Positions 394 through 19,353 of a DNA stretch of 20,151 nt are shown piece by piece (within the stretch, counting starts at the first letter, position 1; the number at the start of each line of letters is the position of its first letter). Where the stretch lies: the IMG/VR virus record IMGVR_UViG_640753025_000004, positions 1-20,151 of that record; one strand, 5' to 3'. This DNA is from a virus (Duplodnaviria; Heunggongvirae; Uroviricota; Caudoviricetes). The notes beneath the pieces are model-generated. The model was not told the DNA's origin. It did no database searches and saw nothing but the letters and a program-made list of their open reading frames with translations. Position numbers and translations under genes: made by a program.

Positions 394-402
394 CCCGGAA
401 TG

Positions 403-1719: not shown

Positions 1720-1932
1720 TCAAGTCGCCGGGAGGTACTTGTAGATTGTTTTCACGTCCACGCCTGTCACATCAGCCACCTGCTGCCGGGTAGCGCCGTT
1801 CTCCAGCATTCTGCGGCACCGCTCCACCACTTCTTCAGTCATTATCCGGCGGCGGCCGCCGACTCTCTCCTGCTCCATCGCTGCGGACCGACTCGGATGC
1901 ATTCGGCAAATTCTAGGCCGTGATTTTTCCAA
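1720..1932 (-). pseudogene. C-terminal remnant of a serine DNA invertase (Pin/Gin/Hin family), copy B
   Basis: GGRRRIMTEEVVERCRRMLENGATRQQVADVTGVDVKTIYKYLP parallels the Gin/Hin C-terminal HTH domain (GGRPPKLT...LYKKHP). The resolvase catalytic domain is missing; the ORF starts with TTG and overlaps the 3' end of the upstream 266-aa gene. Confidence 0.65.
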
Positions 1933-2713: not shown

Positions 2714-2722
2714 TTTTTATCC

Positions 2723-4786
2723 TCAGAAAACGTTAATACGAAAAGCGGGGAGCCAGTCGTAAAGAGTCACGGATGTGTCATACACCCATATGATTCCAGC
2801 GGAAGATCGAACACACCCTCTTGCACCAAGAGTCCGCCCGGAAGGTTTTACAGATGCGCCGCTCTGAAGTGGGTTTTCTGCTGTCGCATAGGAAACGCGC
2901 CCAAAACGTCCAGAGGGGGCGGTCGCCAGGTTAATCAGCACGCCCTTGCCGTCCGAGCTGATCGCGATGCTCGATATAGCAGGTGGAGCACCAGTCTCAT
3001 CCGTGTAGCTAAAGCCGTAATTGGCCAGACCGGAGGTGTTGATCGTAGTCGTGTCCAGCACCAGGTTCGTATACGCTGGGACATTGATTTGTATCTGCGT
3101 GGGTGAGTTCCACACGAAACTGGTCGGAACCATCCCTGACCAGCCGCTCGTAAACCACTCCTGGAGAAGCGCTCTCGCCACAGCTGCTCCGCGCCGGTTC
3201 TGGCCCGCACACGTCAAGTGCAGACCGTCTGAAATAAAATCGTACTGGTACAAACTATTGACCAGCCTGAATTGCTCTTTTCCGTGCAATCGCGTCGACG
3301 CCAGTCGCGCGTACTGGCCTGTAAATGCACCATGCCCGTCATTGACATACCCCAGCTGGGTAATGGCGATAATCGGCGGTTCGTTTTGACCCGTTCTTGC
3401 GATGATGTCGCTGGTGATTTGTCTCTGGTACTGCCTCATCCGTGATTCATACATTCCTTCTCGTAATCCTGACCAGTCCTCGTCGGACTCTCCCTGCATC
3501 CAGTCAACGCAGAGAACAATCGGCAGCCAGCCGCGTGCTTTACAGGCCGTTACGCAGTCTTCGATTGAATCGAGCAGATACTGATATACCTGGTTACCCC
3601 GTTTCTGGTACTCGTAAGCCTGACCAGACTGCGCACATACGATTGATAGCGTGCGCGGCATGATTCCGGTAGCTGCAGCCATATCGCGAATGAAGGTGTT
3701 CGCGAGGCCGCTTGCGGCCGTTTCTTTATCTGTCCCACTTACTGCCTCAACCAGTGGCACCAGAGTAGTGCTGCGTGTCCCTGTACGCCTAACCCCGCCG
3801 CTGAGCATGAAAGCGTTATCAGGATATATCGGCGTTGCTGCGACAATGGTTTGATCGGCGTCAGGACAATATCCTCGAGCGTTGGATTGCCCAGCAGTCA
3901 CAAAGATAAAACATACAGGCACTGTCTCTGAGTAGGGGTACACAGTAGACCCTGACAAATGAAGTCCATACTCAGGGAGCTGGTTGGCATCATCGTCGCC
4001 ACCACCACCGCCATTTCCGTTATTAACAGCTACCAGGCCACCGTCTGAGTAAATCCAGTGCTTCCCACCAACCGTATAAGCTTCAACGATCTGGTTTGTG
4101 GTTGAATCAACCGTCATCCGCCACACTTTTTCACCGCCAATAAACTGCGGTATAGAACCCTCCCGGCCCAGCGCATAGAGTTCGGATTCTTGTTGGGTTA
4201 AAAGTTCGTAATATTTTCCGTCAGGACCGATTTGAATTAATCTGCCGCTTGTATTTAAAAATGGAGCCACGCGGGAAGTCTCCGGATCATATGCTGCCAG
4301 GGTCACGCTGTCTGGCGATACCTGGTATGCGTAGTCGTCACGAACCATCCGCCGTCCGGTTGGCTGCAGCGTTCCAGCGAGGTTGATATACTCATCGGCC
4401 AGAGAGCTTCCGTCCTGACTGCGGACATAGGTTGTTGAACCTGCCGGAATATTCGCAATATCCGCCTGCGCCGCCGCCAGCGTCATGTACTGCCGGCTGA
4501 GAGGGATCAGGTTTTGGCGGGCTTCATCAATAACAGCGTCGGTAGCAGCTGCCATTTTTTTAGTAGCCCCAATTATCGTATCCTGGGCGTTACCAAAACG
4601 ATCTATAAAAGTATCGCTTTCGCTGTTCAGGAAATCATCGTACGCCAGGGCGTTATCATTCAGATCCTTCATGCTATTTGAAGGTCTTGGATTGCCGGTA
4701 TTATATCTTTTGTCCATACCTGTTCCTGTCTTCATCTTTTCAATGAAGCAATTAAGATTGACGCCCCGCCCCTTCAGGGCTAACAT
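2723..4786 (-). CDS. tailspike-like protein with a SASA/SGNH-type carbohydrate O-acetylesterase domain
   Basis: Long ORF with a central FIFVTAGQSNARGY motif, the GQSN(M)xG nucleophile motif of sialate-O-acetylesterase/DUF303-type esterases (as in prophage NanS-p and esterase tailspikes). A Gly-rich linker precedes it and a C-terminal beta-rich region follows. The true start is probably an internal ATG (about 4735 or 4717, the latter with an AGGA SD). Confidence 0.6.
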   Translation of the reverse strand: MLALKGRGVNLNCFIEKMKTGTGMDKRYNTGNPRPSNSMKDLNDNALAYDDFLNSESDTFIDRFGNAQDTIIGATKKMAAATDAVIDEARQNLIPLSRQYMTLAAAQADIANIPAGSTTYVRSQDGSSLADEYINLAGTLQPTGRRMVRDDYAYQVSPDSVTLAAYDPETSRVAPFLNTSGRLIQIGPDGKYYELLTQQESELYALGREGSIPQFIGGEKVWRMTVDSTTNQIVEAYTVGGKHWIYSDGGLVAVNNGNGGGGGDDDANQLPEYGLHLSGSTVYPYSETVPVCFIFVTAGQSNARGYCPDADQTIVAATPIYPDNAFMLSGGVRRTGTRSTTLVPLVEAVSGTDKETAASGLANTFIRDMAAATGIMPRTLSIVCAQSGQAYEYQKRGNQVYQYLLDSIEDCVTACKARGWLPIVLCVDWMQGESDEDWSGLREGMYESRMRQYQRQITSDIIARTGQNEPPIIAITQLGYVNDGHGAFTGQYARLASTRLHGKEQFRLVNSLYQYDFISDGLHLTCAGQNRRGAAVARALLQEWFTSGWSGMVPTSFVWNSPTQIQINVPAYTNLVLDTTTINTSGLANYGFSYTDETGAPPAISSIAISSDGKGVLINLATAPSGRFGRVSYATAENPLQSGASVKPSGRTLGARGCVRSSAGIIWVYDTSVTLYDWLPAFRINVF
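4757..4785 (+). promoter_or_regulatory. candidate sigma70 promoter for the moron operon
   Basis: TTGACG-N17-TAACAT just upstream of the HTH gene, in the divergent intergenic region. Confidence 0.3.
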
Positions 4787-4794
4787 CGCCTTAC

Positions 4795-5082
4795 GTGTTT
4801 AAACGGTTAAATAAGAGAATGATTTTAATAAATAAATACACCCCTCCAACGCAGGAAGATTTAGCCAGACTGAAATCCGCACTAAATTACTCCGGAAACC
4901 AAATGGCAGGGCTCGCAGGTGTAGCCAGCGATAGCCAATGGCGGAAATACACTGGCGGAGAGAGCCCCAGGGTAATGTCAAGACACATACTGTTTTATAT
5001 TGCAGCTCAGCTTGTTCTGTCTGATGAGCAACTTAACAATGTAATAAATAAAATGCGCGATATTGGCGCGGAGATAAAATAA
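4795..5082 (+). CDS. small HTH (Cro/XRE-like) protein, first gene of the moron
   Basis: The segment TQEDLARLKSALNYSGNQMAGLAGVASDSQWRKYTGGE has an HTH-like pattern. Track start is GTG; first ATG is at 4819. Stop overlaps the acyltransferase start (TAATG). AT-rich. Confidence 0.45.
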   Translation: MFKRLNKRMILINKYTPPTQEDLARLKSALNYSGNQMAGLAGVASDSQWRKYTGGESPRVMSRHILFYIAAQLVLSDEQLNNVINKMRDIGAEIK

Positions 5083-6173
5083 TGCTTGGCCTAATAAGGT
5101 TTTTTTTGGCATCGTGCGTCATTGCTTTTCACTTAACGGCTCGCATACCTGCACTTGGCAACTTTGCAGTGAATTGCTTCTATGTTATTAGTGGTTTTTT
5201 AATAACATACATTTTGCATGAAACATACAAGTTCAACTTCTCTATGTTTTGGAAAAATAGAATACTGAGGTTATTCCCGGCATATATATTTTTTCTCGTC
5301 ATGGGCTTTCTTATTATAAAATTAATTCCATCCGCAAAGGAATTCCACTCAAACTGGACAGGCAATTTCTTACCTGGAGATTTATTAGGAAACCTCTTAA
5401 TCTTCCCCTGGGCTTTCCTTTCTGATAATGCTGTAGCAAATCCATTCGGTGCCTTTTCATCCATTTATCACTTTGCTATTGATGGTAATAGATTCAGAAT
5501 AGTCACATCATCATGGTCAGTGGGTGTTGAGATAACATGTTATTTTTTATTGTGGCTTTTCATAGCCCGAAATAAATTTACAGCCATTACGTCGATTCTG
5601 CTTTCACTGCTTTATCATGCTTACGTATATGTAGTACACCATTCTTTTGATATGGCGTATTTCCCATTCCTTGCTGCAACACTTCCTTTTAGCATGGGTT
5701 CTCTGGGTTATTTTGCCCATAGAAAGTTCAAAGCTATGTATCTTTCTCCACACAAAGCTTTTTTAATAACATTTATTTGCATCGGGATTTTTATTACCAA
5801 TTGGCATTTATATACAATTAATCCATTAGGTCAGTACAACATAATACTTTACTACACCAATAATGTAATAGCATTGTTTACAACCCTGGTATTATTAAAA
5901 ATAAAGACAAACATACATCTTGAGAAAATACTCAAGTGGTTTGGTGACCTGGCCTATCCAATTTTTCTTTGTCAATATTTTGGTGGATTTCTAGCATGGC
6001 TTGCTATTGGTGGTGAAAATCGTGGCTTATCCATCTTTTTATTAGGCTACCCAATATCAATTGCACTTGGGATCGTTTGTGTAATATTAATAGACAAGCC
6101 ACTAATTAAAATTAGAGCAAAAATAAGGGCGGACGCTCAAAGCAAAAATAATCAGGAAAACTCTTCAAGGTAA
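5082..6173 (+). CDS. acyltransferase-3 family integral membrane O-acyltransferase (OafA/Oac-like)
   Basis: Multi-TM protein with family-typical N-terminal motifs (FHLTAR, FYVISGFLITY, WKNRILRLFPAY). Markedly AT-rich relative to flanking phage genes and on the opposite strand. Confidence 0.8.
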   Translation: MLGLIRFFLASCVIAFHLTARIPALGNFAVNCFYVISGFLITYILHETYKFNFSMFWKNRILRLFPAYIFFLVMGFLIIKLIPSAKEFHSNWTGNFLPGDLLGNLLIFPWAFLSDNAVANPFGAFSSIYHFAIDGNRFRIVTSSWSVGVEITCYFLLWLFIARNKFTAITSILLSLLYHAYVYVVHHSFDMAYFPFLAATLPFSMGSLGYFAHRKFKAMYLSPHKAFLITFICIGIFITNWHLYTINPLGQYNIILYYTNNVIALFTTLVLLKIKTNIHLEKILKWFGDLAYPIFLCQYFGGFLAWLAIGGENRGLSIFLLGYPISIALGIVCVILIDKPLIKIRAKIRADAQSKNNQENSSR

Positions 6174-6937
6174 ACTAAACCATTCGCTCCTTTTCCTGAT
6201 GAATAGTTACCATTCCCCCCGGCACCACCTGAGCCGGGGAAACCGCCATCATCGCCAGAACTACCGAAGTGGCCATTGCCACCCGTTGATGAAAATGCAG
6301 ATCCTCCAGCCCCGCCAATAAAAGCATCAGAACCATAATACAGACCACCTTGAGATATTCCGCCAGTAATATTTAAAATGTTCCCGCCACTTCCGATACC
6401 TCCAGCAGGAACTGTAGCCCCGCCACCACTCCCTCCAGTAGCTGAGATTAAACTCCCGAACCTTGTATCACCACCATTCCCGCCTTTAGACGAGACACCA
6501 GCAGCAACAGCACTGCCACCAGTACCTATCGTCACAGATATAGTTTCGTTATCAGAAATATTAAATAACCCTTCCGAAAATCCACCAGCACAACCTCCAG
6601 ATGCGCCCACACTAACTGGAGCATTCTGGCCACCTCCCCCCGCTCCCCAAACTTTCACCCGCACTCTTTTCGTCCCTTTAGTTGGAGTGTAAGTCCCTGA
6701 CTTAGTAAAGGTGACAATATTAAGCAGGCGACCGCCACCAATCGCTTTAAGAACCTGTGAATCATCATCAGGATCAAGCTCAAGCCCCGCGCCCTCAACA
6801 ACGTTTACCAGCTCACGCTGAAAGGTATTCATCATCTCAGCATTAATTATTGTCGGTGAAATACCATTAGCGACATTACCATTAGTGTATTCACCATTAG
6901 CATCAGCGGTGTCAGTTGTACTGCCAACTTTTCTCAT
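6152..6937 (-). CDS. tail fibre protein with glycine-rich C-terminal region
   Basis: N-terminus (DTADANGEYTNGNVANGISPTIINAEMMNTFQRELVNVVEGAGLE) resembles tail-fibre N-terminal attachment domains, followed by G-rich repeats. It lies directly after the baseplate genes, and its 3' end overlaps the convergent acyltransferase by about 22 nt. Confidence 0.55.
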   Translation of the reverse strand: MRKVGSTTDTADANGEYTNGNVANGISPTIINAEMMNTFQRELVNVVEGAGLELDPDDDSQVLKAIGGGRLLNIVTFTKSGTYTPTKGTKRVRVKVWGAGGGGQNAPVSVGASGGCAGGFSEGLFNISDNETISVTIGTGGSAVAAGVSSKGGNGGDTRFGSLISATGGSGGGATVPAGGIGSGGNILNITGGISQGGLYYGSDAFIGGAGGSAFSSTGGNGHFGSSGDDGGFPGSGGAGGNGNYSSGKGANGLVYLEEFS

Positions 6938-6963
6938 ATAAACCTTCTTTTTAAATGTCTGAA

Positions 6964-7638
6964 TTAAACGTAACCGGAAGCGATATCAAATATTTTGGCA
7001 AACTCAGGCGTGACTTCGTAAACCCCCTCATCGTTAAAACCGAAATAGATATAGCCGAATTTGACCAGGGTGTATGAGGGGGCGAGGGCATTAATCCGGC
7101 ATTCAAGCTGACGATTACCCCAGGAACGTAATGGATCGCCACAATAACTCAGACCTGCACGGGCATAAGTTATCGTTGTGTCTTCCGCCTCTACCAGCCA
7201 GACAAATGGCCAGTCATCCCCATTTAGCCCGTCACCACATACCGATAAGCCAGCACGCGCCTGCCGGTATTCCTTAATCGAAATCGTATAACCCATTGCT
7301 GCGGCAATACTGATGAAATAGCTCTTTGACTGCCCGCCGGTACTGATGAGTTTCGATACAATGTCAGACTGACGCTTCGCAATCGTATCCACTTCGCCAA
7401 TCGAGCAATCATCAGGTAAGCCGAGTGTTTTTTCCCACTCGGTGAGCATAATCGTCGCAGTTTTTGGAAAGGCACCGCGCAGCAATGCAAGTGCGTCGTT
7501 ATCACTTCGCTGGAAACTGGCCGCAATGGCCCGCAGTACAGCGGCCTGAACAGCTTTTGGATCCCGTGTCCACGCTCGGCCGGTGGGGATAAGCGCCTGC
7601 AGTGCCTTCTGATAATCGTCTGTTGAGAAAAGGCTCAT
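6964..7638 (-). CDS. baseplate protein, Mu gp48 / YmfQ-like (DUF2313)
   Basis: Position immediately after the J-like gene with a 4-nt overlap; sequence character of YmfQ-like proteins. Confidence 0.6.
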   Translation of the reverse strand: MSLFSTDDYQKALQALIPTGRAWTRDPKAVQAAVLRAIAASFQRSDNDALALLRGAFPKTATIMLTEWEKTLGLPDDCSIGEVDTIAKRQSDIVSKLISTGGQSKSYFISIAAAMGYTISIKEYRQARAGLSVCGDGLNGDDWPFVWLVEAEDTTITYARAGLSYCGDPLRSWGNRQLECRINALAPSYTLVKFGYIYFGFNDEGVYEVTPEFAKIFDIASGYV

Positions 7639-8783
7639 GTGTAGTTCACCTCACCACGAACAGCCAGCTCCCCAACTCCCGGCTCAATATTCGCAGAAGG
7701 CGACACAAGGATATAACCTGAAGTACCGGCAACATCCCCTATCGCACGGTTGAGATCTGAAAGGTAAATTTTCCCTGTGCCGAGCGGGTTAGCGGATTCA
7801 AACAATACCCCGTCAATCGCATCAGCAATGGCCGCAGTCGTTGCGCTGTCGGCATCAGATATCCCGCCTATTTCAAAATCGATAACGCGTTCGATGGGAG
7901 AGCAGACATAGTTAAGGGAAGTAACCGGCGCAAGCGGATACATATAATCGGCAACTCTCCCCTGATCCCCGGTGGCTTTTACAGCCCCCCACTCTTCCAG
8001 TTGAGAGACACCGTCAGTTCCTACAGGGAATCCATGATTGGTTTTATCATCGCCGTCGCACATGATGTAAATCACCACGGTACCCGGCCCCATCCCCCGG
8101 CGCCGTATCCATGCCCTGGTAATCCCCGACACGGATAAAGCCCAGCTTTTATAATCAGTGTCACTCCCGCCCTGCGGGGGATTCTGATACGCCAGCAGAC
8201 CACGTAATCGGAAATCCTCTTCACTTTCAATGTTGGCGCCGCCGGTGGCGGGCTCAATCAGCGTAACCGAGCTGTCTATGCCGGGGGCATTAGCATCCAG
8301 TGTAAGAATGGTGCCAGCATCGGCATTTCCGGAAGCGCCTCCTCCTGTCACATCGTCTGTGATATCCGGCAAAACCGCTGTTACAGCAACCGACGCACTG
8401 CCAGCAGTGTTTATCGTTATGGCATCATCGGTTGTGTACTGGTAACCATCATCACGGTTTAACACCGCCCCTTTTGACAGTGTTTTCCCCGGCGTTCCGG
8501 TAACGGTCGCCGCCGGAGAGCGTGCTGCCGTTGCGGCTTTTCGGTAAATCTGCTTTAGCGCCATCCATCCGGCAAGCCACTCATCGGTAGAGGTGAAAGG
8601 CGTGCTCTGACGGGCAATATAATCCAGGTAGGCGTAGTGCAGATGGGCCATGCCCGCATCCATATCAGCGAGCACCTTAAGGTTGCCAAACCGTAACAGC
8701 GCGCCAACACTTTCAAGCTCTGCCTGCATAAACTGGCGATTCTCCTGCCGGAGCTCGCTCAGTGTTTTCCGCTTAAATGGCAT
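7635..8783 (-). CDS. baseplate J-like protein (Mu gp47 / P2 gpJ family)
   Basis: 382-aa protein in conserved order after the GP46-like gene; overlapping stop and start. Confidence 0.7.
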   Translation of the reverse strand: MPFKRKTLSELRQENRQFMQAELESVGALLRFGNLKVLADMDAGMAHLHYAYLDYIARQSTPFTSTDEWLAGWMALKQIYRKAATAARSPAATVTGTPGKTLSKGAVLNRDDGYQYTTDDAITINTAGSASVAVTAVLPDITDDVTGGGASGNADAGTILTLDANAPGIDSSVTLIEPATGGANIESEEDFRLRGLLAYQNPPQGGSDTDYKSWALSVSGITRAWIRRRGMGPGTVVIYIMCDGDDKTNHGFPVGTDGVSQLEEWGAVKATGDQGRVADYMYPLAPVTSLNYVCSPIERVIDFEIGGISDADSATTAAIADAIDGVLFESANPLGTGKIYLSDLNRAIGDVAGTSGYILVSPSANIEPGVGELAVRGEVNYT

Positions 8784-9222
8784 TATTCAGTTGCTCCCAT
8801 AGCCAGAAGAATTTGAACTCCTGCCAGTCCCCCGCCGGCGGCAAATACCGGATGATGAGGTTCAGCCTATTCGGGAAAACAATCTCTGACTGAGCCTCTA
8901 TCGCTGCTGCAATACCATCCGACTTCATCCAGGCCAGAGCCTCTTCGGCATAATCTTCAGCTCTCATCGCCACTTCGCGCGTCAGTTTTTCACGCCGCAG
9001 TAGCCACAGCCTTGAGCCAATATTCCGGTCGTTGTCCAGATCCCCCCACCAGCCGCGGCGGTCAGTTCCTTCATAATCATCATCAGCGCGCGCCAGTCCG
9101 TCAGTAAACAAACTGATAATTATGGCCGTGTGCATATCATTCTCAGATGTCAGTACGCCGTTACCGGTTTGCCAGTCAGCATGAATGGCATCCACATCCC
9201 AGAATGAGGAAATATCACTCAT
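8773..9222 (-). CDS. phage GP46-family baseplate protein (gp25/W-like)
   Basis: 149-aa protein between the V-like and J-like genes, with 4-nt and 11-nt overlaps. Confidence 0.6.
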   Translation of the reverse strand: MSDISSFWDVDAIHADWQTGNGVLTSENDMHTAIIISLFTDGLARADDDYEGTDRRGWWGDLDNDRNIGSRLWLLRREKLTREVAMRAEDYAEEALAWMKSDGIAAAIEAQSEIVFPNRLNLIIRYLPPAGDWQEFKFFWLWEQLNNAI

Positions 9223-9800
9223 ACCTGACTCTCTGTTTTTTCGCTTATGATCGTGCTATCGCCGGACTGAACTTTTTTAACGTCATGGTCATGATCGTTG
9301 TGAGCATCCCGCAGCGCTTTGAGCGTTGAATTGTTCGTCTCGCAGTTATCGATGATGTCACCCGTCACCAGGAGTTTGGGGGTAACCAGCTTTACCTGTT
9401 CCGTTGCCGTCGCGGTGATGTTTCTGGCATTATTGATCTCTACATCTTTGCCTTTCGCATCAATGAAAATTCCCTCCTCGGTCAGATGAATATTCATCCC
9501 CTGCTGGTTATAGACCACGGTTTCGCCTGGCTTAAGCCCGGTATACCGGAAGCTTTGATGGTTAGAGGCAATGACGACAGGACTGGAGCGGTCCCCGCCG
9601 AGAAAGGCAATAAGCACATCCGATCCCGCCGGTAACCCCGATGAAAAACCAAAATCAGAGAGCCGTGGGGCGCTGGCCACTTCCAGCGGAGTCTGGTACT
9701 GGATTTCCTGCACAACCCCGCTATCTTTCTGCGTGGTAATACGGCCAATGCCCAGCATGCCGGCGATGCGCGTGGCCGATTTCTTTAAATTTTGATTCAT
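9219..9800 (-). CDS. baseplate assembly protein V (spike), Mu gp45 / P2 gpV-like
   Basis: 193-aa protein in canonical order after the hub gene, with a 4-nt overlap. Confidence 0.65.
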   Translation of the reverse strand: MNQNLKKSATRIAGMLGIGRITTQKDSGVVQEIQYQTPLEVASAPRLSDFGFSSGLPAGSDVLIAFLGGDRSSPVVIASNHQSFRYTGLKPGETVVYNQQGMNIHLTEEGIFIDAKGKDVEINNARNITATATEQVKLVTPKLLVTGDIIDNCETNNSTLKALRDAHNDHDHDVKKVQSGDSTIISEKTESQV

Positions 9801-10882
9801 TGGTTTAGTCCGGGTATTTGCTGGTAGAAAGCATAAGGCTGGACAGCGAAAGCCTCCGGGGGCATCAGATAAAGGCGCGCATGGGTGCCGTCACTGTCTC
9901 TGATATAAGTCACCTCTGCGATAAGCAATTCGGTGTCAGGCAGCTGCAGACTCGGGATGTTGACCGGGATAAGCGTATTCGGCTCCCATAATTTCCCGGA
10001 TTTATCGCGCCAGGAATCAATCGTCACCGTTAACTGACGGGAACGGCCGTATCGGCGGTTCATCTCCCAGTCAATCGCTCGCTGAGCCTGTTGTGAAGCC
10101 ATCAGTGTACTTTCAACAATAATGATCCGTTTTCGGTAACGCATACTGGCCGCCTCAGGATCGCGGGCCGTCGCCAGCGTCACCGAATCATAAGCCGTAT
10201 CTGGCGAGAATCCTGCAATCGGCGAAATGCTCATCGATACGCCGACGTAATCAGAAAAGCGGTCAGCCATCGAACGGCGGTAATAAGCCTGTTCGATATT
10301 TACCCCTTCTGCGATACCGCTGGCCGCGCGCTTTGTCCCCACCCGGGTCAGAAATAAGTTACCGTCAGGCTGATCGTAATAAAGCAATGCCGACCAGCGG
10401 GAGACACGATCAAGTATTTCCTGTGGCGATTCCCCCCAGTTCAGGGAAAATTGCGGAACTTTCACCAGATCATCAACGTCTGTACTTACGCCAATGTTGT
10501 AATGGGATGCGAGGCGGGAGGCTATATCAAGCGCATTACTGTTATTGATGACGTTATTTGGCCATTCAGCAGAGCAATCAACGAGATCTGCGCACTTACT
10601 GCGGCCTGAGGCTCTGACTTCATGGCGCGAACGGGAAATAGCAGGCGACCAGTCATCAACATACCCCGTCACTACCAGGTCGTTACCAAGCTTTACCTGA
10701 CAAGGCATCCCTTCCTTTACCAGCTGCTTCTGGTCACTTCCCGGAAAATAATCCATCAGTCCCAGGTCAAAATCGGAGGGAAAACGCTCAATGCCACGGG
10801 TCACCCGCACAGAGTCCCATCCTTCAATGATTTTTCCGCCCACTGTCAGGGAGACAATATCCTGATCATTATCCGTACTCAT
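9797..10882 (-). CDS. baseplate hub protein (phage late control D / Mu gp44-like)
   Basis: 361-aa protein at the head of the baseplate cluster; size and sequence character fit the GPD family. Confidence 0.6.
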   Translation of the reverse strand: MSTDNDQDIVSLTVGGKIIEGWDSVRVTRGIERFPSDFDLGLMDYFPGSDQKQLVKEGMPCQVKLGNDLVVTGYVDDWSPAISRSRHEVRASGRSKCADLVDCSAEWPNNVINNSNALDIASRLASHYNIGVSTDVDDLVKVPQFSLNWGESPQEILDRVSRWSALLYYDQPDGNLFLTRVGTKRAASGIAEGVNIEQAYYRRSMADRFSDYVGVSMSISPIAGFSPDTAYDSVTLATARDPEAASMRYRKRIIIVESTLMASQQAQRAIDWEMNRRYGRSRQLTVTIDSWRDKSGKLWEPNTLIPVNIPSLQLPDTELLIAEVTYIRDSDGTHARLYLMPPEAFAVQPYAFYQQIPGLNQ

Positions 10883-11265
10883 TGTCTCAACACCTTCATC
10901 GTCGTCGGCATAAATGCCGGATGCGGTACGCTGGCCTCCTGTATCAGTTCATTTGCCCGCGAGGCATCCTGATACAGGCGGTTGGCCAGTACCAGGGCAG
11001 GAACCGGCACCGCAGTATTGATTTGCATCAACTCACTCAGTCCGGATGAAGTCTGAGCCATGGTATTCAGAAAAGCGGTTCTCACGTCCATCAATGCCGT
11101 ATAAAGATCATCATCGCCACGGTCGCCCGCCAGTAGTAACGCGGTATCCAGTTGCCCGGCCACGCGTTGAGTGATTTCTTCGGCCTCATTACGACTGGTT
11201 GGGTTGTAATCTGCAGCAGCATCCGTCATGGCTCCGGTACATAGCACTACGATCAGCGTGTTCAT
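10879..11265 (-). pseudogene. probable C-terminal remnant of an upstream tail gene (possibly Mu gp43/N-like) at a deletion junction
   Basis: 128-aa ORF directly preceding the hub gene. Its 5' part overlaps the run-on 3' end of the D-like gene in another frame. No recognisable N-terminus. Confidence 0.3.
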
Positions 11266-11698
11266 GGTGCCAGCCAGTTGCTGGCTGCTTTCGGAACGCT
11301 GGTAAAGGTGCCTGGGCGCTGTCTTTCAGGAAGATGGCCAGCGGACGTAGTGCTGTTTTCAGTTCCGGCGCAGTCCAGGAATCGTCAAAAATAATATGAT
11401 TCTGGTTGAACTCGCCCATCAGGTACAGGCCGCCGGACTGATCGCCATGGGTGGAAGCGTCAACATCATCAACCAGAATGGCCGCTGGCGTCTCGCTACC
11501 ATCCGTTGCGGTTTTCACACTGGCTGTATATTTGCCACTGGCGGTGATCATGCCAAGCACAGTGCCACGCTTATACACACCGCCGGTGATCGTGCCGGTG
11601 TCAGTGACCAGTTGCAGCGTACCGGCAATTAACTGATCCGGCACAAACACTGAACTCTTCATGCCAGGTGCAAAGGCATTCTGACCAAATTGATCCAT
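11189..11698 (-). CDS. head decoration protein (lambda D-like) with aberrant 3' extension
   Basis: Position after the scaffold gene with TAATG coupling and SD AAGGAGAG. The first roughly 124 aa resemble D-like proteins in length and pattern; the ORF then continues about 45 codons beyond the expected end. Confidence 0.45.
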   Translation of the reverse strand: MDQFGQNAFAPGMKSSVFVPDQLIAGTLQLVTDTGTITGGVYKRGTVLGMITASGKYTASVKTATDGSETPAAILVDDVDASTHGDQSGGLYLMGEFNQNHIIFDDSWTAPELKTALRPLAIFLKDSAQAPLPAFRKQPATGWHHEHADRSAMYRSHDGCCCRLQPNQS

Positions 11699-12288
11699 TA
11701 TTTCTCTCCTTTAATGGAGTTGTAGAGGCCGGTCATCTGGTTTACCAGTGCCGATTTACCGTTCTCTTTCTTGCCGCCATCCGGATTCAGACGGACATCA
11801 TGGCTTTCCTGCATGCGCTGATCGAGAGAGCGCCCGCGCGTTGCCTTTGGTTGCAAGGCTGGCGCCGTGGATGCCAGAACATCGATAGCGGCGGTAGAGC
11901 TCATCCCGGTATTGAATGCGAGTGAAGCGGCCAGTGACGGATTCGCCGCAGCGTGCTTACTGCCGAAGATACGGGCGCAACGTTTACGCTCGGCGGCGCG
12001 GGCATTTTTCACCGCTTTGCTTTCTTTGCGGTCATCGTCGCCGTCATCTTCGGAATCGTCATCGTCTTCAGCCGCATCCAGGTCGTCACCGTCATCTTCA
12101 GCGTCATCATCACGATCGTCGTTTTCCGCGTCATCTTCGCGTTCATCGTCCCCGGCATCATCTTCGCGCTCATCCTCTTCCGCGCGACGGCCTTTCGCTT
12201 TTTTGGCCTTTTTGTCCTCTTCCTCTTCGGAAGCAGTCGCGCCACGGCCAATAAGATGAGCAAAACTAAAAGTCTTTTTCTTCGCCAT
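11698..12288 (-). CDS. scaffolding protein (Nu3-position) with long acidic tract
   Basis: ATG at 12288 with SD AGGAG, 1 nt after the protease stop. About 60-aa D/E-rich tract, then an Ala-rich C-terminal region. The track ORF start at 12372 is probably an over-extension. Confidence 0.5.
   Translation of the reverse strand: MAKKKTFSFAHLIGRGATASEEEEDKKAKKAKGRRAEEDEREDDAGDDEREDDAENDDRDDDAEDDGDDLDAAEDDDDSEDDGDDDRKESKAVKNARAAERKRCARIFGSKHAAANPSLAASLAFNTGMSSTAAIDVLASTAPALQPKATRGRSLDQRMQESHDVRLNPDGGKKENGKSALVNQMTGLYNSIKGEK
12000..12240. repeat. low-complexity degenerate GTCATC/GTCGTC repeat tract encoding the acidic scaffold segment
   Basis: Repeated gtcatcgtc/gtcatcttc units. They generate five overlapping spurious ORFs in the track on both strands. 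Confidence 0.6.
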
Positions 12289-12289
12289 T

Positions 12290-13156
12290 TCAGGCTCCTG
12301 TTTTTTCAAGTAAGTTTCTGAACGCAGCATCAGGAGGACACACCTCATCAGCCAGTCCAAGTTCCACACCATCAGCAGCCATAAAACAGGCAGCCTGAGT
12401 ACTTTTGATAACCTTTGCGCTAATCCCCCGATTTCTGGCGACGGTATTCACAAACAATTCGCCCATGGTGTTGATGTCCTGCTGAATAGCCGCCAGCGCT
12501 TCATCTGACAGCTCTCTCAGCGGTGCCCCCTCAGCCTTACGGGAACCGTAGGTGATGATGGTGACTTTGAGGCCGTCATCTTTTATCCGCTGGGTCCAGT
12601 CAAGGTGCATAGTGATCACACCAACTGAACCCACACCAGCGGTTCGGGGAACAGAAATCCGGTCCGCCGCACTGGCAATCGCATAGGCGGCGGAATAGGC
12701 GCTTTCCGTCAGAATGGCATGGATGGGCTTTTTCCCGCGGGCGCCATAAATGACATCGACCAGATCGAAACATCCGGCGACCTCGCCTCCTGGCGAATCA
12801 ATATCCAGGCAGATCCCTGTAATATCGGGGTCTTCCATCGCAGTCAGGAAGGCCTGACGAATGCCGTCATAGCCTGTCATGCCACTGTATGGGCGCAGGC
12901 TACCCAGCTTCTGCACCAGGGTCCCACATATCGGGATGACAGCGACGCCCAACACATTGTCATAACCCGGGTCGCTACGGGATTCCCGCCCCCTGTTATC
13001 GTCGTATCCATACCAGTCATCATCCATGGCAAGAGAGGATTCGATTTTACTGATGCCAAACCGGTCCATAACGGATGCCATGATGACTTCAGCTTTACTT
13101 GGGTGCAGCGCCAGCGGTGTATTAAAAAGGCGCTGGGCCAGATGAGGTAGATTCAC
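12290..13156 (-). CDS. head maturation protease / minor capsid protein C (S49 SppA/ClpP-like)
   Basis: The segment GICLDIDSPGGEVAGCFDLVDVIYGARGKKPIHAILTESAYSAAYAIASAADRI is typical of S49 peptidases; located after the portal gene. Confidence 0.8.
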   Translation of the reverse strand: MNLPHLAQRLFNTPLALHPSKAEVIMASVMDRFGISKIESSLAMDDDWYGYDDNRGRESRSDPGYDNVLGVAVIPICGTLVQKLGSLRPYSGMTGYDGIRQAFLTAMEDPDITGICLDIDSPGGEVAGCFDLVDVIYGARGKKPIHAILTESAYSAAYAIASAADRISVPRTAGVGSVGVITMHLDWTQRIKDDGLKVTIITYGSRKAEGAPLRELSDEALAAIQQDINTMGELFVNTVARNRGISAKVIKSTQAACFMAADGVELGLADEVCPPDAAFRNLLEKTGA

Positions 13157-14787
13157 TTTTCCTCCGGATCGGTAATTGTCTGGCTGGCGAACTGGTCCGC
13201 CTGCGCCCAGCTAGGTAATGGAAGTCCGCGCTTCAGGCAGGACTCAATTTCCCGCTGGCGCTGATCAAGTATCTCTTCCCAGTCCTCACCCACGTTTTCA
13301 CCCACTTCAATTTCGAGAGTGGAAAGGCCGGCATCGAGGCCGAGAATGGCGCCTTTTTTCTCTGCCACCGGATCAACCCATCCTCGCCCCGGCCCCATCC
13401 AGCGCGCACGGGAATACGCTGCCCGGGCATCAACAAAATCAGGGGCATCATTAGGTAGAGGTAAATCCTCGTTATCGTGAACTTCCTCCACAAAGGCCGT
13501 CAGAAGCGGCTGAGCGGTACCCATGGAGAAATCATCACGTCGGCGGGTGAGCGTTTTCCATGCCTCCAGCAAGGAAGATCGCGCAGAGCTGTAATTCACA
13601 TCAGACCAGTCCTGTGTAACCTGCTGAGGAGATAACCCCGTACCGGATGAGAAATTACGCAATACTGCAGACTCGAAAACCTCAAAGTTGCTGTAAGGGC
13701 GGGCAGCGTTGACCGTTGTTATTCTCTCCCCTGGATAAAGGATCGGCATACGGGCGCCATTCTGCAGCGTCAAACGGCGATCATTATGAAACTCTGCACG
13801 ACCATCCTGGTATGCTCCCAATCCCTCTTCGAAGTTTTCCCCCAGCGCGGACTGGATCATTTCGGGATCGTATGGAGACTCAATATACGCGGCGAAGATA
13901 GCATTCAGAATTGCTGCTTCCAGCTCGCTCTGGTCGTACTTCACCAGCATCTTCAGACGTTGCACTACTGGAGTCAGAATGCCATTCCCCCGATGCTGAG
14001 CTCCACGCTCATGGTCAAAGTCGTGCACAACGTGCGGGCGCCCCCATGCGGTTTCGCGCGGGATTCGTCGCCATGTCATTGTTTTGGCGCCACTCCACCA
14101 GTCACCGATATGTGCTTCACGTATGTGATAAGCCACAGGTGCGCCGTCAGCATCAATTTCAACGCCGCCGCGGATATTCGGCATATCAAAATTCTGCTGC
14201 GGGTTACTGAGTCTGTCGGGATCAACAACCTGCACCGTCGTGGCATAACGCCCCTTACCTGGTCCAAGGCGATCGGTGCGATACTGAAGCACCATCAGGG
14301 CATCGCCATCAATCAGCTTGTGGCGAAAGGCCAGACGCAACATTTGTGGAACGGTTAGCTTGCGCTCAACGTCACAATAACGGCCTGTGTCGTATGCCCA
14401 GGTTCTCCAGTGGGAAGCGAGTGCTTTTCCGTACTCTTCCGCCCATACTGCGTCAAAACTTTTATTACCTGTCATCATCCGTAATACACGATAGTCAGGC
14501 TTCATGATCGGACGGAAATTGGCGCCGACCGCATTATCAAGCAGGCGAGTTATGGCACCATTGGCCCATCCATCATTTCGGACCAGATCCCGCGCACGGG
14601 AAACTATACGGTCACGGTAGATATTAATTTCGTTATCCGGTGACCATAGTGCGGGCTGCCAGTTCGCCAGTTGATCGCTGAAGGAATCCCCGGCGTCATA
14701 TGGCACCCGGCTACCGCCCGTCAACATGCTGGGTTTTGGTGCCTGATAAGGTCTCCCGTCAGGACCAAGGATTTGCACTTTATTCAT
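13153..14787 (-). CDS. portal protein (lambda B-like)
   Basis: 544-aa protein between W and the protease; size and sequence character of lambda-family portal proteins. Confidence 0.85.
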   Translation of the reverse strand: MNKVQILGPDGRPYQAPKPSMLTGGSRVPYDAGDSFSDQLANWQPALWSPDNEINIYRDRIVSRARDLVRNDGWANGAITRLLDNAVGANFRPIMKPDYRVLRMMTGNKSFDAVWAEEYGKALASHWRTWAYDTGRYCDVERKLTVPQMLRLAFRHKLIDGDALMVLQYRTDRLGPGKGRYATTVQVVDPDRLSNPQQNFDMPNIRGGVEIDADGAPVAYHIREAHIGDWWSGAKTMTWRRIPRETAWGRPHVVHDFDHERGAQHRGNGILTPVVQRLKMLVKYDQSELEAAILNAIFAAYIESPYDPEMIQSALGENFEEGLGAYQDGRAEFHNDRRLTLQNGARMPILYPGERITTVNAARPYSNFEVFESAVLRNFSSGTGLSPQQVTQDWSDVNYSSARSSLLEAWKTLTRRRDDFSMGTAQPLLTAFVEEVHDNEDLPLPNDAPDFVDARAAYSRARWMGPGRGWVDPVAEKKGAILGLDAGLSTLEIEVGENVGEDWEEILDQRQREIESCLKRGLPLPSWAQADQFASQTITDPEEK

Positions 14788-15050
14788 CAGAATCTGAACC
14801 TCACTGGCTTCCGTGGCCGGGCGACAATTCCCAGTTGCGCCTGCAGCAACTGAATCAGCGCCAGCAGGTCGGCGAGAGAGCTTTGCTGATAGGAGACAGA
14901 GCGCGTCCCATCACCCTGCGTATAGGAGAATGAGACGCCACGGCTGCCGGTAGTCAGGTCGATATAAGCCTGCTGCGCTTTCTGCAGAGCGTCTCTGAGC
15001 TGCTCATCAGTCATCCCACCAGCAAGTAAGCTCGTGTTTCGGTTAAACAT
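14787..15050 (-). CDS. head-tail joining protein W-like
   Basis: Small protein between terminase and portal; its pattern parallels lambda gpW. Confidence 0.55.
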   Translation of the reverse strand: MFNRNTSLLAGGMTDEQLRDALQKAQQAYIDLTTGSRGVSFSYTQGDGTRSVSYQQSSLADLLALIQLLQAQLGIVARPRKPVRFRF

Positions 15051-15058
15051 GGTTTTCC

Positions 15059-17191
15059 TTATTGCGGCAGGAGTTTAGAAATGTTCTTACGCTTAACAGG
15101 AGCCATAGCCTCATCCACGATGGCACCCGGTAATTCGTAATTGATTTTTTCTTCTGGCTCGGCTGGCGCCGGCAGGAACTTATCGGGATCGGCCTGAAGG
15201 TTAGCGGCCCGAACATTGAGTTTTAATCCCATATGTTTCAGCCCACACAACGCGGCATAGCTGTAAACGAGGCAGTCGAGTGCTTCGTTCGCCCGTCCGG
15301 GGATAGGCTCCCAGACACTGAATCGCTGACCGGCCACCACTTTATAAACCAGTCGCTCGGCCAGCAGCTGGTTGAAATAGCCGAGGTCACGATCATCCGG
15401 GAAGTGCATATAGCCCGCACCGGCAGTACCTAAAGCTGGCGGTTCAAGATGCAGACGACCACGGACAACATCTTTCGCAGAGTTCACGCCAAGTATAATT
15501 GGCCTGAAGCTGGCTTTACTTTTTGATGTCGGTCGCTTGGTTGGCCAGACGGGGTTGCGTTTCCCACCCTGCGCAGATTCGCCCTTGATAGCCCAGACGC
15601 GGCGCCCAAGGCGATCTTTGCAGAACTCATAAACCTTTTGCGTGTGGTGACCGCCGGAGTCCATACATGCAGCCAGAATATTCAGCCCTCGCCCGTCGCC
15701 GCGTCGCCATATCTGTTTCAGGTACGCATCGAGGCGCTTCCAGGGTTCCTCAGTCTCCAGATCGCCATAAATGACGTCATGCGCAACTGACCACGATTCC
15801 TCGTCCCGCCCCCAGCCAGTGATCGTGATTTCGAATCGGTCATCCTGAGTATCGACGCCCGCAGTTAACAATGCCACGCCATCAGGAACGACGGCCGGGA
15901 AGACTTCACGGCGCGCCAGCAGGACATCAACCGGGAGCTGTTTCCCGTGGTTAGGCCGGTGCGGCAACCCCATCTGGGTGTTCCACCAGGCCTGTTCCTT
16001 ATCCGGATCCCCTTTCGCATCGAGGTATTTCTTTGCAATGTCCGATGGCTTGTCTTTTTGCCAGGGACTGAAGAGTTTTGACGCCTGGTACCCGGCGTGG
16101 TGATTATCCAGCGCCTCGGCCCCGCAGTCCGGGCAAATCGCCCGGTATACGGCATGCCGTTCCGACTCTGACCAGCGCCAGACGGCATCAACACTGCCCT
16201 CGTCTCCTTCATGCCATTTCTGGTCGTATTCCATTAATGGTGAATGGCGGGAACCACAACATTCAAACGGTTTGGTCTGATGCCAGCGGATTGTCTGTAA
16301 TGCCCGCAGACGCTCACCCTCTGACCAGCCAGCACCACAACATTCACAATGGATCATGGCCGCTTTGGTCAGGTGCTTATCACCTTCTTTTGGCCATTGA
16401 ACATGTTTGAAGAAATCAAGGAACTGTCGGTGCCCGCAATGGGGGCAAACTACAGAGGCCCGCCGCTGATCTGAATCTTCGTAACTGTCAGCAATCCGGC
16501 TTTCATCTTCGATCGTCGGCGAACAAGCCCGCACGGACAGCCAGTTAAGGCCAAATGTGGCGGTTCGCTCTTCCGCCAGAGCGATGGGATCGCCCTCACG
16601 GGTAATCGGATATTTATCCACCTCATCTGCCAGCAGAACACGGATCGGACGGCGCGCAAGGTTATCTGGACTACCGGCGCCGGCCAGCGCCAGAAATCCG
16701 CCGGTGAAAGCTTTATACAGAATGGTTTCTTTTGAACTCTTCTGCTTTGAGTCACCTATGATGTTACGCAGAACTGGCGTTACCCTAACCAGCGGGCTGA
16801 TGCGTTCTTTGGAAAACTGCTCAGCGGCCTCTTCCTTCGGCTGCAGGAGCAAAATCGGACATGGGTCGAGGTGCGCAAAATAACCAAACAGGTTTTCCAG
16901 CAGCGCGGTTTTCATTAACTGGGTACAGCACATCACGGTGATAATGTGGACGCCCGATTCCGTCGCGGCCAGCATAGGACCGCGGGCAATTTCAACCGTT
17001 GATGTTTCCCAGTTCCCGGAGGTACTGCCAGCTTCTTTCGCCAGCTTCCGGTAGTCATCGGCCCATTGCGGGACGCTGATCCGCGGCGGCGGTGTCCACC
17101 CTTTCCGGACACTCAGTTGAAGACGCTCAATCTTCCGCTGGGTTAAACTCTGGTTCTCCGAGGACTGAGATATGTTTGTGGACATGTTCAA
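15059..17191 (-). CDS. terminase large subunit (lambda gpA-like)
   Basis: 710-aa protein with an ATPase N-terminal region and a nuclease C-terminal region; overlaps the small-subunit gene by 65 nt as in lambda. Confidence 0.9.
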   Translation of the reverse strand: MNMSTNISQSSENQSLTQRKIERLQLSVRKGWTPPPRISVPQWADDYRKLAKEAGSTSGNWETSTVEIARGPMLAATESGVHIITVMCCTQLMKTALLENLFGYFAHLDPCPILLLQPKEEAAEQFSKERISPLVRVTPVLRNIIGDSKQKSSKETILYKAFTGGFLALAGAGSPDNLARRPIRVLLADEVDKYPITREGDPIALAEERTATFGLNWLSVRACSPTIEDESRIADSYEDSDQRRASVVCPHCGHRQFLDFFKHVQWPKEGDKHLTKAAMIHCECCGAGWSEGERLRALQTIRWHQTKPFECCGSRHSPLMEYDQKWHEGDEGSVDAVWRWSESERHAVYRAICPDCGAEALDNHHAGYQASKLFSPWQKDKPSDIAKKYLDAKGDPDKEQAWWNTQMGLPHRPNHGKQLPVDVLLARREVFPAVVPDGVALLTAGVDTQDDRFEITITGWGRDEESWSVAHDVIYGDLETEEPWKRLDAYLKQIWRRGDGRGLNILAACMDSGGHHTQKVYEFCKDRLGRRVWAIKGESAQGGKRNPVWPTKRPTSKSKASFRPIILGVNSAKDVVRGRLHLEPPALGTAGAGYMHFPDDRDLGYFNQLLAERLVYKVVAGQRFSVWEPIPGRANEALDCLVYSYAALCGLKHMGLKLNVRAANLQADPDKFLPAPAEPEEKINYELPGAIVDEAMAPVKRKNISKLLPQ

Positions 17192-17690
17192 TCAGCACCT
17201 CTGTCATCCTGTCCGCCGGCACATTCAGATCGGCGGCTATCAGCGGTGCCACGCGTGAAGGCCAGTTCAGCCAGGCATCACGCTGCTGGCGAAAGGCGTT
17301 AAACAGAACCTCCTCGGCGATGGCCAATTCAATTGTCTGGCCGCTGTCTTTTTCATACTGGAGCTTTGCCTGCAGGGCCATGTAATTTTCACGGATCCGC
17401 GCGGCCTCTTCCCTGGAAAGGACTGCACCTTCTGTAAGCATTATCTGGCGAACGGTTTCATCAATTTCATCGTCGCCATCATTCCGGGGTGCTGGGGCTT
17501 TTTTCTTCTTCGCGTTTGATGCCCGCGGATCTTTTCCATCACGGTTTTTCTTCAGCGCGGCATCGCTCGCCTCAACATCAATCAGGTCGCCATCCATGAC
17601 GATAAACCGACCAGCCTTGATCCATCGGCCAATAGTCTTGCGATCGACGCCTGAATGTTGCGCGTACTGACTCTGGTTCATCGTGGTCAT
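17127..17690 (-). CDS. terminase small subunit (Nu1-like, winged HTH N-terminus)
   Basis: N-terminus QYAQHSGVDRKTIGRWIKAGRF parallels the Nu1 DNA-binding domain; sits immediately downstream of the cos-like repeat array. Confidence 0.7.
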   Translation of the reverse strand: MTTMNQSQYAQHSGVDRKTIGRWIKAGRFIVMDGDLIDVEASDAALKKNRDGKDPRASNAKKKKAPAPRNDGDDEIDETVRQIMLTEGAVLSREEAARIRENYMALQAKLQYEKDSGQTIELAIAEEVLFNAFRQQRDAWLNWPSRVAPLIAADLNVPADRMTEVLIEHVHKHISVLGEPEFNPAED

Positions 17691-17840
17691 GGGACATCAC
17701 CTGGGACATTTTTGGGGTGGGACATTTACCTGGGACATTTTTTCAATGTCCCACACGAATGTCCCACTGGAATAAATGGAATAATCCGTGCTGGCTCTGG
17801 CGTGGCTGGCGATCCCTTGGGGTGGGACATGGGACACAAA
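17690..17840. promoter_or_regulatory. cos-region repeat array (candidate small-terminase binding sites, cosB-like)
   Basis: Four direct TGGGACAT copies at about 17690, 17703, 17718 and 17731 (13-15 bp spacing), two inverted ATGTCCCA copies at about 17746 and 17759, and a further TGGGACATGGGACA at about 17823-17837. Confidence 0.5.
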
Positions 17841-17937
17841 ATAAAAGTTTGTAGCTAGGAAAACACTGCGGCGCGCAATGCCCGTGCCTTACAAAAGTCT
17901 CAGGAAGGACCCAAACCCTATGGGGTAGGTATTCAGG

Positions 17938-18462
17938 TCATTTTGCCGTTCGAATCGCTTCCTCAATCGCCCTACTCAGCGCGCCGGGCATTAAGCCGGC
18001 TGCCATTGACCGTGAGCGGTTCATGTAGTCAAGCGTAGGCGTAACAGGTAGAGCATCACCAAACCTCACCAGCAGCTTAGGAGCACGCTGTTTCCGCTTT
18101 GGTCTGCGCGTACCATTCGCTGAGCGCCGGGCTCGTTTCTTTTTCGCCTTCTTCGGTTTACGCCTCTGCCAGACAGCATCAACACCATTGACCTCACCTA
18201 CGAACACATTCGGCTTCGCTTTCAACTGCGACAGCTTATTTCGCGGCATGTTGCCGTATTTGTTCAGTTTGATGTTCTTTGGATTGAGCAGCGCCTGGCT
18301 GTTCAGTTTATGTTCACCACCAAATTCAAAGGGTTCGAGATATTCAGCGGCGACATCGCGCACAAAGACTTTTGCGCGGAGGTTGTTCTTTCTGGCGCCA
18401 GCAGAGCCCACTGAGTTGACGGTGAACGGCGTCGGCGATTCCAGTTTTCGCCCCAGTGCCAC
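17938..18462 (-). CDS. hypothetical highly basic protein, possibly a 5'-truncated late gene
   Basis: ORF in head-gene orientation upstream of cos, with a Lys/Arg-rich tract (RRKPKKAKKKRARR...RRPKRKQR). Starts with GTG exactly where the integrase fragment begins on the other strand. Confidence 0.3.
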   Translation of the reverse strand: MALGRKLESPTPFTVNSVGSAGARKNNLRAKVFVRDVAAEYLEPFEFGGEHKLNSQALLNPKNIKLNKYGNMPRNKLSQLKAKPNVFVGEVNGVDAVWQRRKPKKAKKKRARRSANGTRRPKRKQRAPKLLVRFGDALPVTPTLDYMNRSRSMAAGLMPGALSRAIEEAIRTAK

Positions 18463-19058
18463 CTTTTGCGCTGCGGCGATATCAGCGTGGTTATGTACCA
18501 GGTAATCCGTGTGTTGGTGTCGATAAGTTTCCTAAACCCCAGCGCGACCGCTACATAACTGATGAAGAGTACATAGCTATCTTCACTCATGCGACACCTG
18601 CAGTTAAAGCCGCGATGGAAATTGCGTATCTTTGCGCTGCAAGGGTATCTGATGTTCTTAAAATGAACTGGAATCAGATTCTTGATAAAGGAATTTTCAT
18701 ACAGCAAGGTAAAACTGGTATTAAACAGATCAAAGCCTGGACTGAGCGTCTTAGTGCGGCTGTGGATATTTGCAGGGAATGGGGACAGGATGGCCCTGTT
18801 ATCAGGACAATGTATGGTGAGCGTTATTCATACAAGGGATTTAATGAAGCATGGAGAAAAGCGAGAAACGCGGCTTCTGAAGAACTTGGTAGGCCACTTG
18901 ATTGCACCTTCCATGATCTAAAGGCTAAAGGGATCTCAGACTATGAAGGATCTGGCAGGGATAAGCAAAAATTCAGTGGTCATAAGACAGAATCACAGGT
19001 ACTTGTTTACGACAGGAAAGTTAAAATCAGCCCAACGTTGAACAAGAAAATGAGATGA
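18456..19058 (+). pseudogene. 5'-truncated tyrosine integrase (lambda Int family), catalytic domain only
   Basis: Catalytic-domain pattern present (ARVSDVLKMNW, HDLKAKG, GHKTESQVLVYDR with the terminal Tyr). The roughly 170 N-terminal residues are missing; the ORF begins with GTG and the first in-frame ATG is about 54 codons in. Confidence 0.8.
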
Positions 19059-19065
19059 TTCTTTG

Positions 19066-19098
19066 GCGTCGGAGCATGCTTCGGCGCTAGAATTTTTC
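19066..19098 (+). terminator. Rho-independent terminator-like hairpin after the integrase fragment
   Basis: GCGTCGGAGC/GCTTCGGCGC stem (with G-U pairs) followed by AATTTTTCTC. Confidence 0.45.
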
Positions 19099-19170
19099 TC
19101 AGTGGATTTTCTCAATTTTTCTCATCGGGATGCAGGTCACTGAAAGGGAATGCTGTAAGTGTTTGAATAG

Positions 19171-19260
19171 TGGCGGAGAGAGGGGGATTTGAACCCCCGG
19201 TAGAGTTGCCCCTACTCCGGTTTTCGAGACCGGTCCGTTCAGCCGCTCCGGCATCTCTCC
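19171..19260 (-). tRNA. serU: tRNA-Ser, anticodon CGA
   Basis: Reverse complement reads GGAGAGATGCCGGAGCGGCTGAACGGACCGGTCTCGAAAACCGGAGTAGGGGCAACTCTACCGGGGGTTCAAATCCCCCTCTCTCCGCCA, a class II tRNA with long variable arm, CGA anticodon and encoded CCA. Its 3' end faces the integrase fragment. Confidence 0.9.
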
Positions 19261-19353
19261 GTTCAGATGGTTGCCATGATGCCAGGAAATTTGGCATTTT
19301 AACAGTCCCTGTCCGTGCAATTTTGTTCAAGTGACGAGTTTGCGAGCAAAACG

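Follow-up and report, generated by a model that had tools for sequence, protein, structure and literature searches.

The window, that is, the whole 20,151-bp stretch of DNA analyzed here, was 100% identical to three assemblies of Escherichia coli HS. In the RefSeq annotation of HS, the neighbors of the element are yodB/zinT on one flank and a tRNA-Ser gene (serU) and mtfA on the other. ARAGORN placed this tRNA-Ser(CGA) gene, the attachment site of the remnant, at positions 19171–19260 on the minus strand, and a copy of the att repeat was found at 19156–19237, matching the far end of the prophage in E. coli MIN9. The position of the HS region between yodB/zinT and serU/mtfA means that the window holds a prophage remnant integrated at serU in the HS chromosome. 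The element has an attachment site and has lost essential genes (integrase, early, lysis, capsid, and tail genes), as is characteristic of a defective (cryptic) prophage.

In terms of retained genes, two structural modules were identified, both on the minus strand and both composed entirely of full-length genes. The lambda-like packaging and head module (11698–17690), which was assigned with PHROGs, Pfam, and full-length tblastn, comprises the terminase small subunit (17127–17690), terminase large subunit (15059–17185), gpW (14787–15050), portal (13153–14787), S49 protease (12290–13156), and a scaffold-like protein (11698–12288). The Mu-like baseplate/fibre module (6152–10882), which was assigned with Pfam and full-length tblastn, comprises the gp44/P hub (9797–10882), gp45 (9219–9800), gp46 (8773–9222), gp47/J (7635–8783), gp48/YmfQ (6964–7638), and a Gly-rich fibre-like protein (6152–6937). 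All 13 retained structural ORFs were uninterrupted, with protein identities of 96–100% to the prophage of E. coli Ec1117, except for the mosaic N-terminus of the terminase small subunit (terS). The region between the two modules is occupied by two overlapping minus-strand ORFs, of 169 and 128 amino acids.

The 169-aa ORF (11189–11698) is a fusion that begins as a head decoration protein (D) and ends in foreign sequence. Its residues 20–121 matched HDPD (PF02924, lambda gpD) at profile positions 9–112 of 116 (80 bits, where the cut-off is 29.1), and its residues 5–131 matched the head decoration family phrog_49 at profile positions 10–143 of 147 (E = 1.4e-35). Homology ended near residue 131, and the C-terminal tail was non-homologous. 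Specifically, the ORF consists of D residues 1–132 (11303–11698), which are 100% identical to the D protein of Ec1117, followed by 37 out-of-frame codons of an N-like gene (11192–11302) and a stop codon (11189–11191). The intact D protein has 135 amino acids and ends in ...KDSAQAPLTTS before its stop; the HS sequence is identical through ...APL (residue 132) and then continues as PAFRKQPATGW.... Compared with a gpD-type protein of lambda, the HS product thus lacks the native C-terminus and stop, the last three codons and stop having been replaced, and it also lacks its cognate gpE-type capsid protein, the Phage_cap_E gene being missing from the window.

The 128-aa ORF (10879–11265), which starts at the first in-frame ATG (11265), lies within a 3' remnant of a Mu gp43/N-like DNA-circularization (baseplate) gene. 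This remnant, recognized with tblastn and PHROGs, spans 10879–11304 on the minus strand and corresponds to codons 326–466 of 466 plus the stop codon. When an intact N protein was used as the tblastn query, its residues 326–466 aligned with window positions 11304–10882, at 100% identity to Ec1117. Consistent with this, the 128-aa ORF matched only the C-terminal part of its PHROG profiles, namely positions 282–407 of 411 in phrog_184 (E = 1.4e-24) and the C-terminal end of phrog_17109 ("DNA circularization"). No Pfam family was matched by the 128-aa ORF or the remnant, because the sole Pfam domain of the family falls in the deleted N-terminal part: in the intact homologue, DNA_circ_N (PF07157) lies at residues 24–117 (108 bits), a region inside the HS deletion. 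The remnant therefore shows the C-terminal homology of a Mu gp43/N-like protein and its expected position upstream of the gp44/P hub, with its stop codon overlapping the start of the hub gene (10879–10882), and is missing the N-terminal DNA_circ_N domain. A sequence-only reading of this DNA had anticipated that the D-like ORF loses its stop and overlaps, out of frame, a 128-aa ORF left from the 3' end of a tail gene just before the hub gene. Loss of the stop was borne out, as was the overlap, which measures 77 nt between different frames, and the tail gene proved to be N-like; the read-on was estimated at about 45 codons and in fact covers 37 (11302 down to 11192).

The point at which D passes into N marks the junction of an internal deletion of approximately 7.8 kb, located at 11303–11304 by base-level three-way comparison. 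The references were the 99%-identical Ec1117 prophage and the same-site prophage of MIN9 (87–92% identical). In the blastn comparison, window positions 4353–11304 corresponded to positions 5241–12192 of the Ec1117 prophage locus (L001) at 98.9% identity, and positions 11300–17319 corresponded to L001 20001–26021 at 99.0% identity, so that 7,812 bp (L001 12193–20004) are absent from HS. At the base level, identity to the left parent extends up to position 11304 and identity to the right parent begins at 11303, and the two parents share a 2-bp TA microhomology at the junction, which sits within an imperfect TGGT(T)A similarity. The deletion-junction sequence is GGAACGCTGGTAAAGGTGCCTGGGCG. MIN9, used as a second, independent reference, placed the breakpoint at the identical window position, with 7,815 bp absent.

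The approximately 1.9 kb surrounding the D/N junction was 100% identical in the three HS assemblies and 99.9% identical in two pig isolates of serotype O9:H10. At least 19 other E. coli genomes matched only the right-hand 58% of the query (>99% identity) and had a second match elsewhere, the pattern expected of the undeleted version. A megablast search with positions 10500–12400 returned no match in the phage collection, because even the closest phage isolates have diverged too far in nucleotide sequence for such a search.

The missing block consists of the last three codons and stop of D, nine whole genes, and codons 1–325 of the 466-codon N-like gene. In order, it runs from the end of D through the major capsid protein E, a hypothetical protein, an FII-like head–tail attachment protein, a second hypothetical protein, and a DUF2635 protein, followed by the sheath, tube, tail chaperone, tape measure, and N-like codons 1–325. 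When the corresponding Ec1117 genes were searched against Pfam, matches were obtained for the major capsid protein E (PF03864, Phage_cap_E), FII-like head–tail attachment protein (PF05354, Phage_attach), DUF2635, sheath (PF04984/PF17482, Phage_sheath_1), tube (PF10618, Tail_tube), and tail assembly chaperone (PF10109, Phage_TAC_7); the tape-measure-like protein gave a weak PF10145 match (19.6 bits), under the gathering cut-off of 33.2. In the annotation of the Ec1117 locus, a D protein of 135 amino acids, a tape-measure-like protein of 617, and a DNA circularization protein of 466 are followed by the hub.

These results agree with further proposals of the sequence-only reading. No capsid, sheath, tube, or tape-measure gene was found between D and the gp44/P-like hub in the HS window, whether by ORFs, Pfam, or PHROGs, and the large internal deletion proposed there corresponds to the clean gap seen against both intact relatives. 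The terminase, portal, protease, and baseplate/fibre genes described as intact are full length in tblastn, as are gpW and the scaffold-like protein. The 169- and 128-aa ORFs are not full-length homologues of genes in an intact phage, given that the relatives, including the Citrobacter phage phiNP, encode D proteins of 135 amino acids and N proteins of 466–467.

A second deletion junction, with a 4-bp TATC microhomology, was located at 18480–18483 from a blastn alignment to MIN9 and inspection of the individual bases. It joins a 5'-truncated hypothetical late gene without its first 31 codons (17938–18483, minus strand) to a 5'-truncated integrase gene whose N-terminus is gone (18480–19058, plus strand), and PGAP annotates both as partial pseudogenes. 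Relative to MIN9, 14,521 bp are lost at this junction; the lost DNA comprises the 5' end of the integrase gene together with early, immunity, replication, and lysis genes. When longer repeats or IS elements were sought at both breakpoints, only the 2-bp (first junction) and 4-bp (second junction) exact microhomologies were found, and a simple scan of 17600–19400 detected no sigma-70-like promoter upstream of the residual late genes.

With no capsid, joining, sheath, tube, chaperone, or tape-measure gene and no intact integrase, early, or lysis genes, the element would be unable to form particles, excise, or lyse its host. The sequence-only reading had likewise predicted a prophage unable to build particles, which the loss of the capsid-to-tape-measure genes makes probable, but the 14.5-kb deletion would cripple the element as well. 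The retained genes are probably not expressed; residual expression or use of some of them may occur, because the retained ORFs are full length and 96–100% identical to those of intact relatives.

The closest counterpart of the retained modules is the Ec1117 prophage (NZ_CP126602.1), which shares approximately 99% nucleotide identity with HS over the head and baseplate/fibre modules and encodes identical D (1–132), N (326–466), hub, and gpW proteins. Unlike HS, it has kept the 7.8 kb from capsid to N, and its early/lysis region is complete; it also sits at another chromosomal site, next to aspS/yecD, with L001 lying between yecD and the early region, and has a divergent terS N-terminus. The prophage of MIN9 (E. 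coli O176:H45; NZ_CP069682.1, L004) occupies the same tRNA-Ser site between mtfA and yodB and has an equal module order, an integrase 99% identical over the retained part, and structural genes that are 87–92% identical. Unlike the HS element, it is near full length (approximately 43 kb) and holds both of the segments lost from HS (7,815 and 14,521 bp), although decay has begun here too: rusA, the lysozyme gene, and gp46 contain internal stops.

Among isolated phages, the closest to the intact N protein in a protein search was phiNP (OR565852.1; 67% identical over the full length), and Serratia BZS1 was 50% identical. The genome of phiNP shows the same combination of lambda-like terS, terL, W, portal, S49 protease, scaffold, D, and E genes, followed by Mu-like sheath, tube, tape-measure, N, and gp44–48 genes. 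In contrast to the HS element, it is a functional phage, with a 135-aa D, a 467-aa N, and ten annotated genes between them. This temperate myovirus of C. rodentium has been described as forming plaques, having a contractile tail, and integrating at ssrA (PMC6456863).

Other types of element were also considered for the HS window. It does not correspond to an R-type tailocin or contractile injection system, given that the sheath, tube, and tape-measure protein are absent and head and packaging genes are present, nor to a phage satellite (PICI or capsid-forming PICI), given that the integrase has no N-terminus and there is no regulatory, replication, or capsid gene. A GTA-like reading was ruled out on gene content. 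The genes flanking the first junction keep the order of a functional phiNP-like myovirus, but everything from the major capsid protein through the tape-measure protein is absent, indicating a deletion derivative of such a phage.

When the distribution of the deleted form was considered, the first junction was present in five of 5,426 complete E. coli genomes, three of which were HS itself. Both junctions were common to HS and the two pig O9:H10 isolates, and HS and a pig isolate differed by nine SNPs in 20,151 bp; the presence of both junctions at this distance indicates a real inherited allele rather than an assembly error. The deletions themselves appear to be recent, because the retained sequence is still nearly identical (99%) to that of intact prophages. 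In the retained structural genes, the differences between HS and the pig isolate were four nonsynonymous and one synonymous, whereas those between HS and the intact Ec1117 prophage were about 24 nonsynonymous and 49 synonymous. With five substitutions since the split and a Fisher p value of 0.053, this shift is only suggestive of relaxed constraint after inactivation.

Taken as a whole, the window is almost certainly best explained as the serU remnant of a phiNP-type prophage that has decayed by two internal deletions. The starting point would have been a temperate myovirus of this type at serU, approximately 43 kb in length, with a lambda-like head and a Mu-like contractile tail. One event of illegitimate recombination or replication slippage, at two sites with only TA in common, would have deleted approximately 7.8 kb. 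With the D stop codon lost, the D frame now continues through 37 alien codons of the N remnant, and this remnant survives as a promoterless, start-less 3' fragment of 141 codons directly upstream of the hub gene. A second deletion, of 14.5 kb, took the 5' end of the integrase gene and the repressor, replication, antiterminator, and lysis genes, leaving a remnant of approximately 19.5 kb. The first deletion thus probably represents prophage decay by a microhomology-mediated or illegitimate-recombination process, of which a 2-bp microhomology is too short to name the pathway.

The same arrangement could also reflect selection for the deletion, instead of neutral loss, if the retained modules or the D fusion had been domesticated for a host function. 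The uninterrupted state of 13 of 13 retained structural ORFs and the maintenance of the element in both the HS and the pig O9:H10 lineage are what such a history would produce. However, the 99% identity to intact prophages implies a recent deletion, after which intact ORFs are expected without selection, so the uninterrupted ORFs are no evidence of selection. Moreover, the changes since the deletion were four nonsynonymous to one synonymous, no promoter-like site was found and the late-gene activator region has been deleted, and the junction is confined to five of the 5,426 complete genomes, three of them HS. To our knowledge, a baseplate without tube or sheath, or a portal and terminase without a capsid protein, matches no known machine. 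We therefore consider domestication very unlikely, and the same holds for the idea that the doubly deleted element as such is a domesticated gene set, with the junction as selected trimming. In one variant of this idea, the host would use the intact baseplate/fibre cluster and the adjacent acyltransferase and esterase genes, with read-through accounting for their expression; in another, the terminase, portal, and protease could aid packaging for a co-resident phage.

The polarity of the change was also considered, because the short arrangement would be ancestral if the full-length prophages had gained the 7.8-kb capsid–tail block by insertion. Nothing beyond the existence of the two forms speaks for this order of events, whereas each breakpoint interrupts a gene: in HS, D is without the conserved C-terminal codons and stop found in Ec1117, MIN9, and phiNP, and the N remnant is without its start and DNA_circ_N domain. 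The truncation of both flanking genes means that the event was a deletion in HS, not an insertion in the relatives; furthermore, a capsid-less phage would be unable to spread, and the probability that the short form came first is negligible. An error of assembly or sequencing, with this part of HS collapsed, is just as implausible a source of the junction: the identical junction is present in three separately deposited HS assemblies and two independent pig isolates, and the breakpoints hold no repeat longer than 2–6 bp that might have caused such a collapse.

Decay of a phiNP-type prophage by two deletions places the HS element among well-known company. The cryptic prophages of E. coli K-12 consist of partial structural modules with truncated or fused genes after internal deletions. 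Among them, e14, Rac, DLP12, and CP4-57 (see also PMC3105296) are likewise internal-deletion remnants, but they are unrelated to the HS element, occupy other loci, are older and more eroded, and in some cases carry documented host-beneficial genes. For HS, a preprint from 2026 gives a count of "two prophage remnants" (bioRxiv 10.64898/2026.05.19.726188), and this general mention was all that our literature search for an earlier description of the HS junction or its breakpoints retrieved. The HS element is a real but ordinary case of prophage decay, a precisely mapped instance of a known process that raises no new biological question. Its value lies in the base-exact breakpoints of both deletions that turned a phiNP-like prophage of approximately 43 kb into the serU remnant of approximately 19.5 kb, and in being a clean, datable case of what is probably microhomology-mediated decay, given the nine SNPs that have accumulated since the HS and pig-isolate lineages split.

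The two ORFs at the first junction are carried in RefSeq without a pseudogene flag. The D fusion is listed by RefSeq/PGAP as WP_000371938.1 ("head decoration protein"), and the N remnant, for which PGAP places the start at 11229 (116 aa), is listed as WP_000128594.1 ("hypothetical protein"); in terms of annotation, both should count as pseudogenes.

The second deletion junction lies at window 18480-18483 (flanks 17938-19058), on a 4-bp TATC microhomology, and joins back-to-back a late gene that has lost its first 31 codons and an integrase without its N-terminus. Relative to the prophage of MIN9, an E. coli O176:H45 strain in which it occupies the same tRNA-Ser (serU) site, 14,521 bp of early, immunity, replication, and lysis genes are absent here. 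PGAP marked both genes at this junction as partial, unlike the D' fusion and the N remnant at the first junction (window 10879-11698; 2806414-2807233 in HS RefSeq NZ_CP185286.1), which were annotated as normal CDSs with no pseudogene flag: the D' fusion (WP_000371938.1, 169 aa) as "head decoration protein" and the N remnant (WP_000128594.1, 116 aa) as "hypothetical protein".

In the otherwise full-length MIN9 prophage (L004), internal stops were observed in rusA (11455-11832), lysozyme (14799-15329), and gp46 (34291-34740), showing that a different decay route, by point mutation, has been taken within the same prophage lineage as the HS remnant. Over the whole remnant, HS and the pig O9:H10 isolates differed at only nine positions (window 1-20151 against 502-20652 of the pig-isolate locus L005), and six of the seven coding changes were nonsynonymous, a pattern consistent with neutral decay.

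The MIN9 prophage does not share the host-range region (window 1873-7098), and the intact prophage of E. coli Ec1117 shares only part of it, from 4353; the distal end of the tail is thus mosaic. In this region, distal to the fibre genes, lie a large SGNH/GDSL "sialate O-acetylesterase" gene (window 2723-4786, minus strand) and a gene for a 266-aa hypothetical protein (1913-2713, minus strand). Among the fibre genes, an acyltransferase-family gene (363 aa; window 5082-6173, plus strand) has a low GC content of 34-37% and runs on the strand opposite to its neighbours. The Ec1117 prophage carries it too, at 99% identity. Its probable role is that of a cargo gene ("moron") for modifying the cell surface or O-antigen. 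A further mosaic stretch, at window 17320-17842, takes in the region upstream of the small terminase and the N-terminal half of that protein; here MIN9 showed approximately 92% nucleotide identity, whereas Ec1117 showed only 59% protein identity (small terminase N-terminal half). Everything downstream of this segment is approximately 99% identical to Ec1117. At the far, attR-proximal end, the remnant contains a frameshifted umuD-like ("DNA polymerase V") pseudogene (window 329-561, minus strand; 2830-3062 of locus L002) and a truncated HTH gene.
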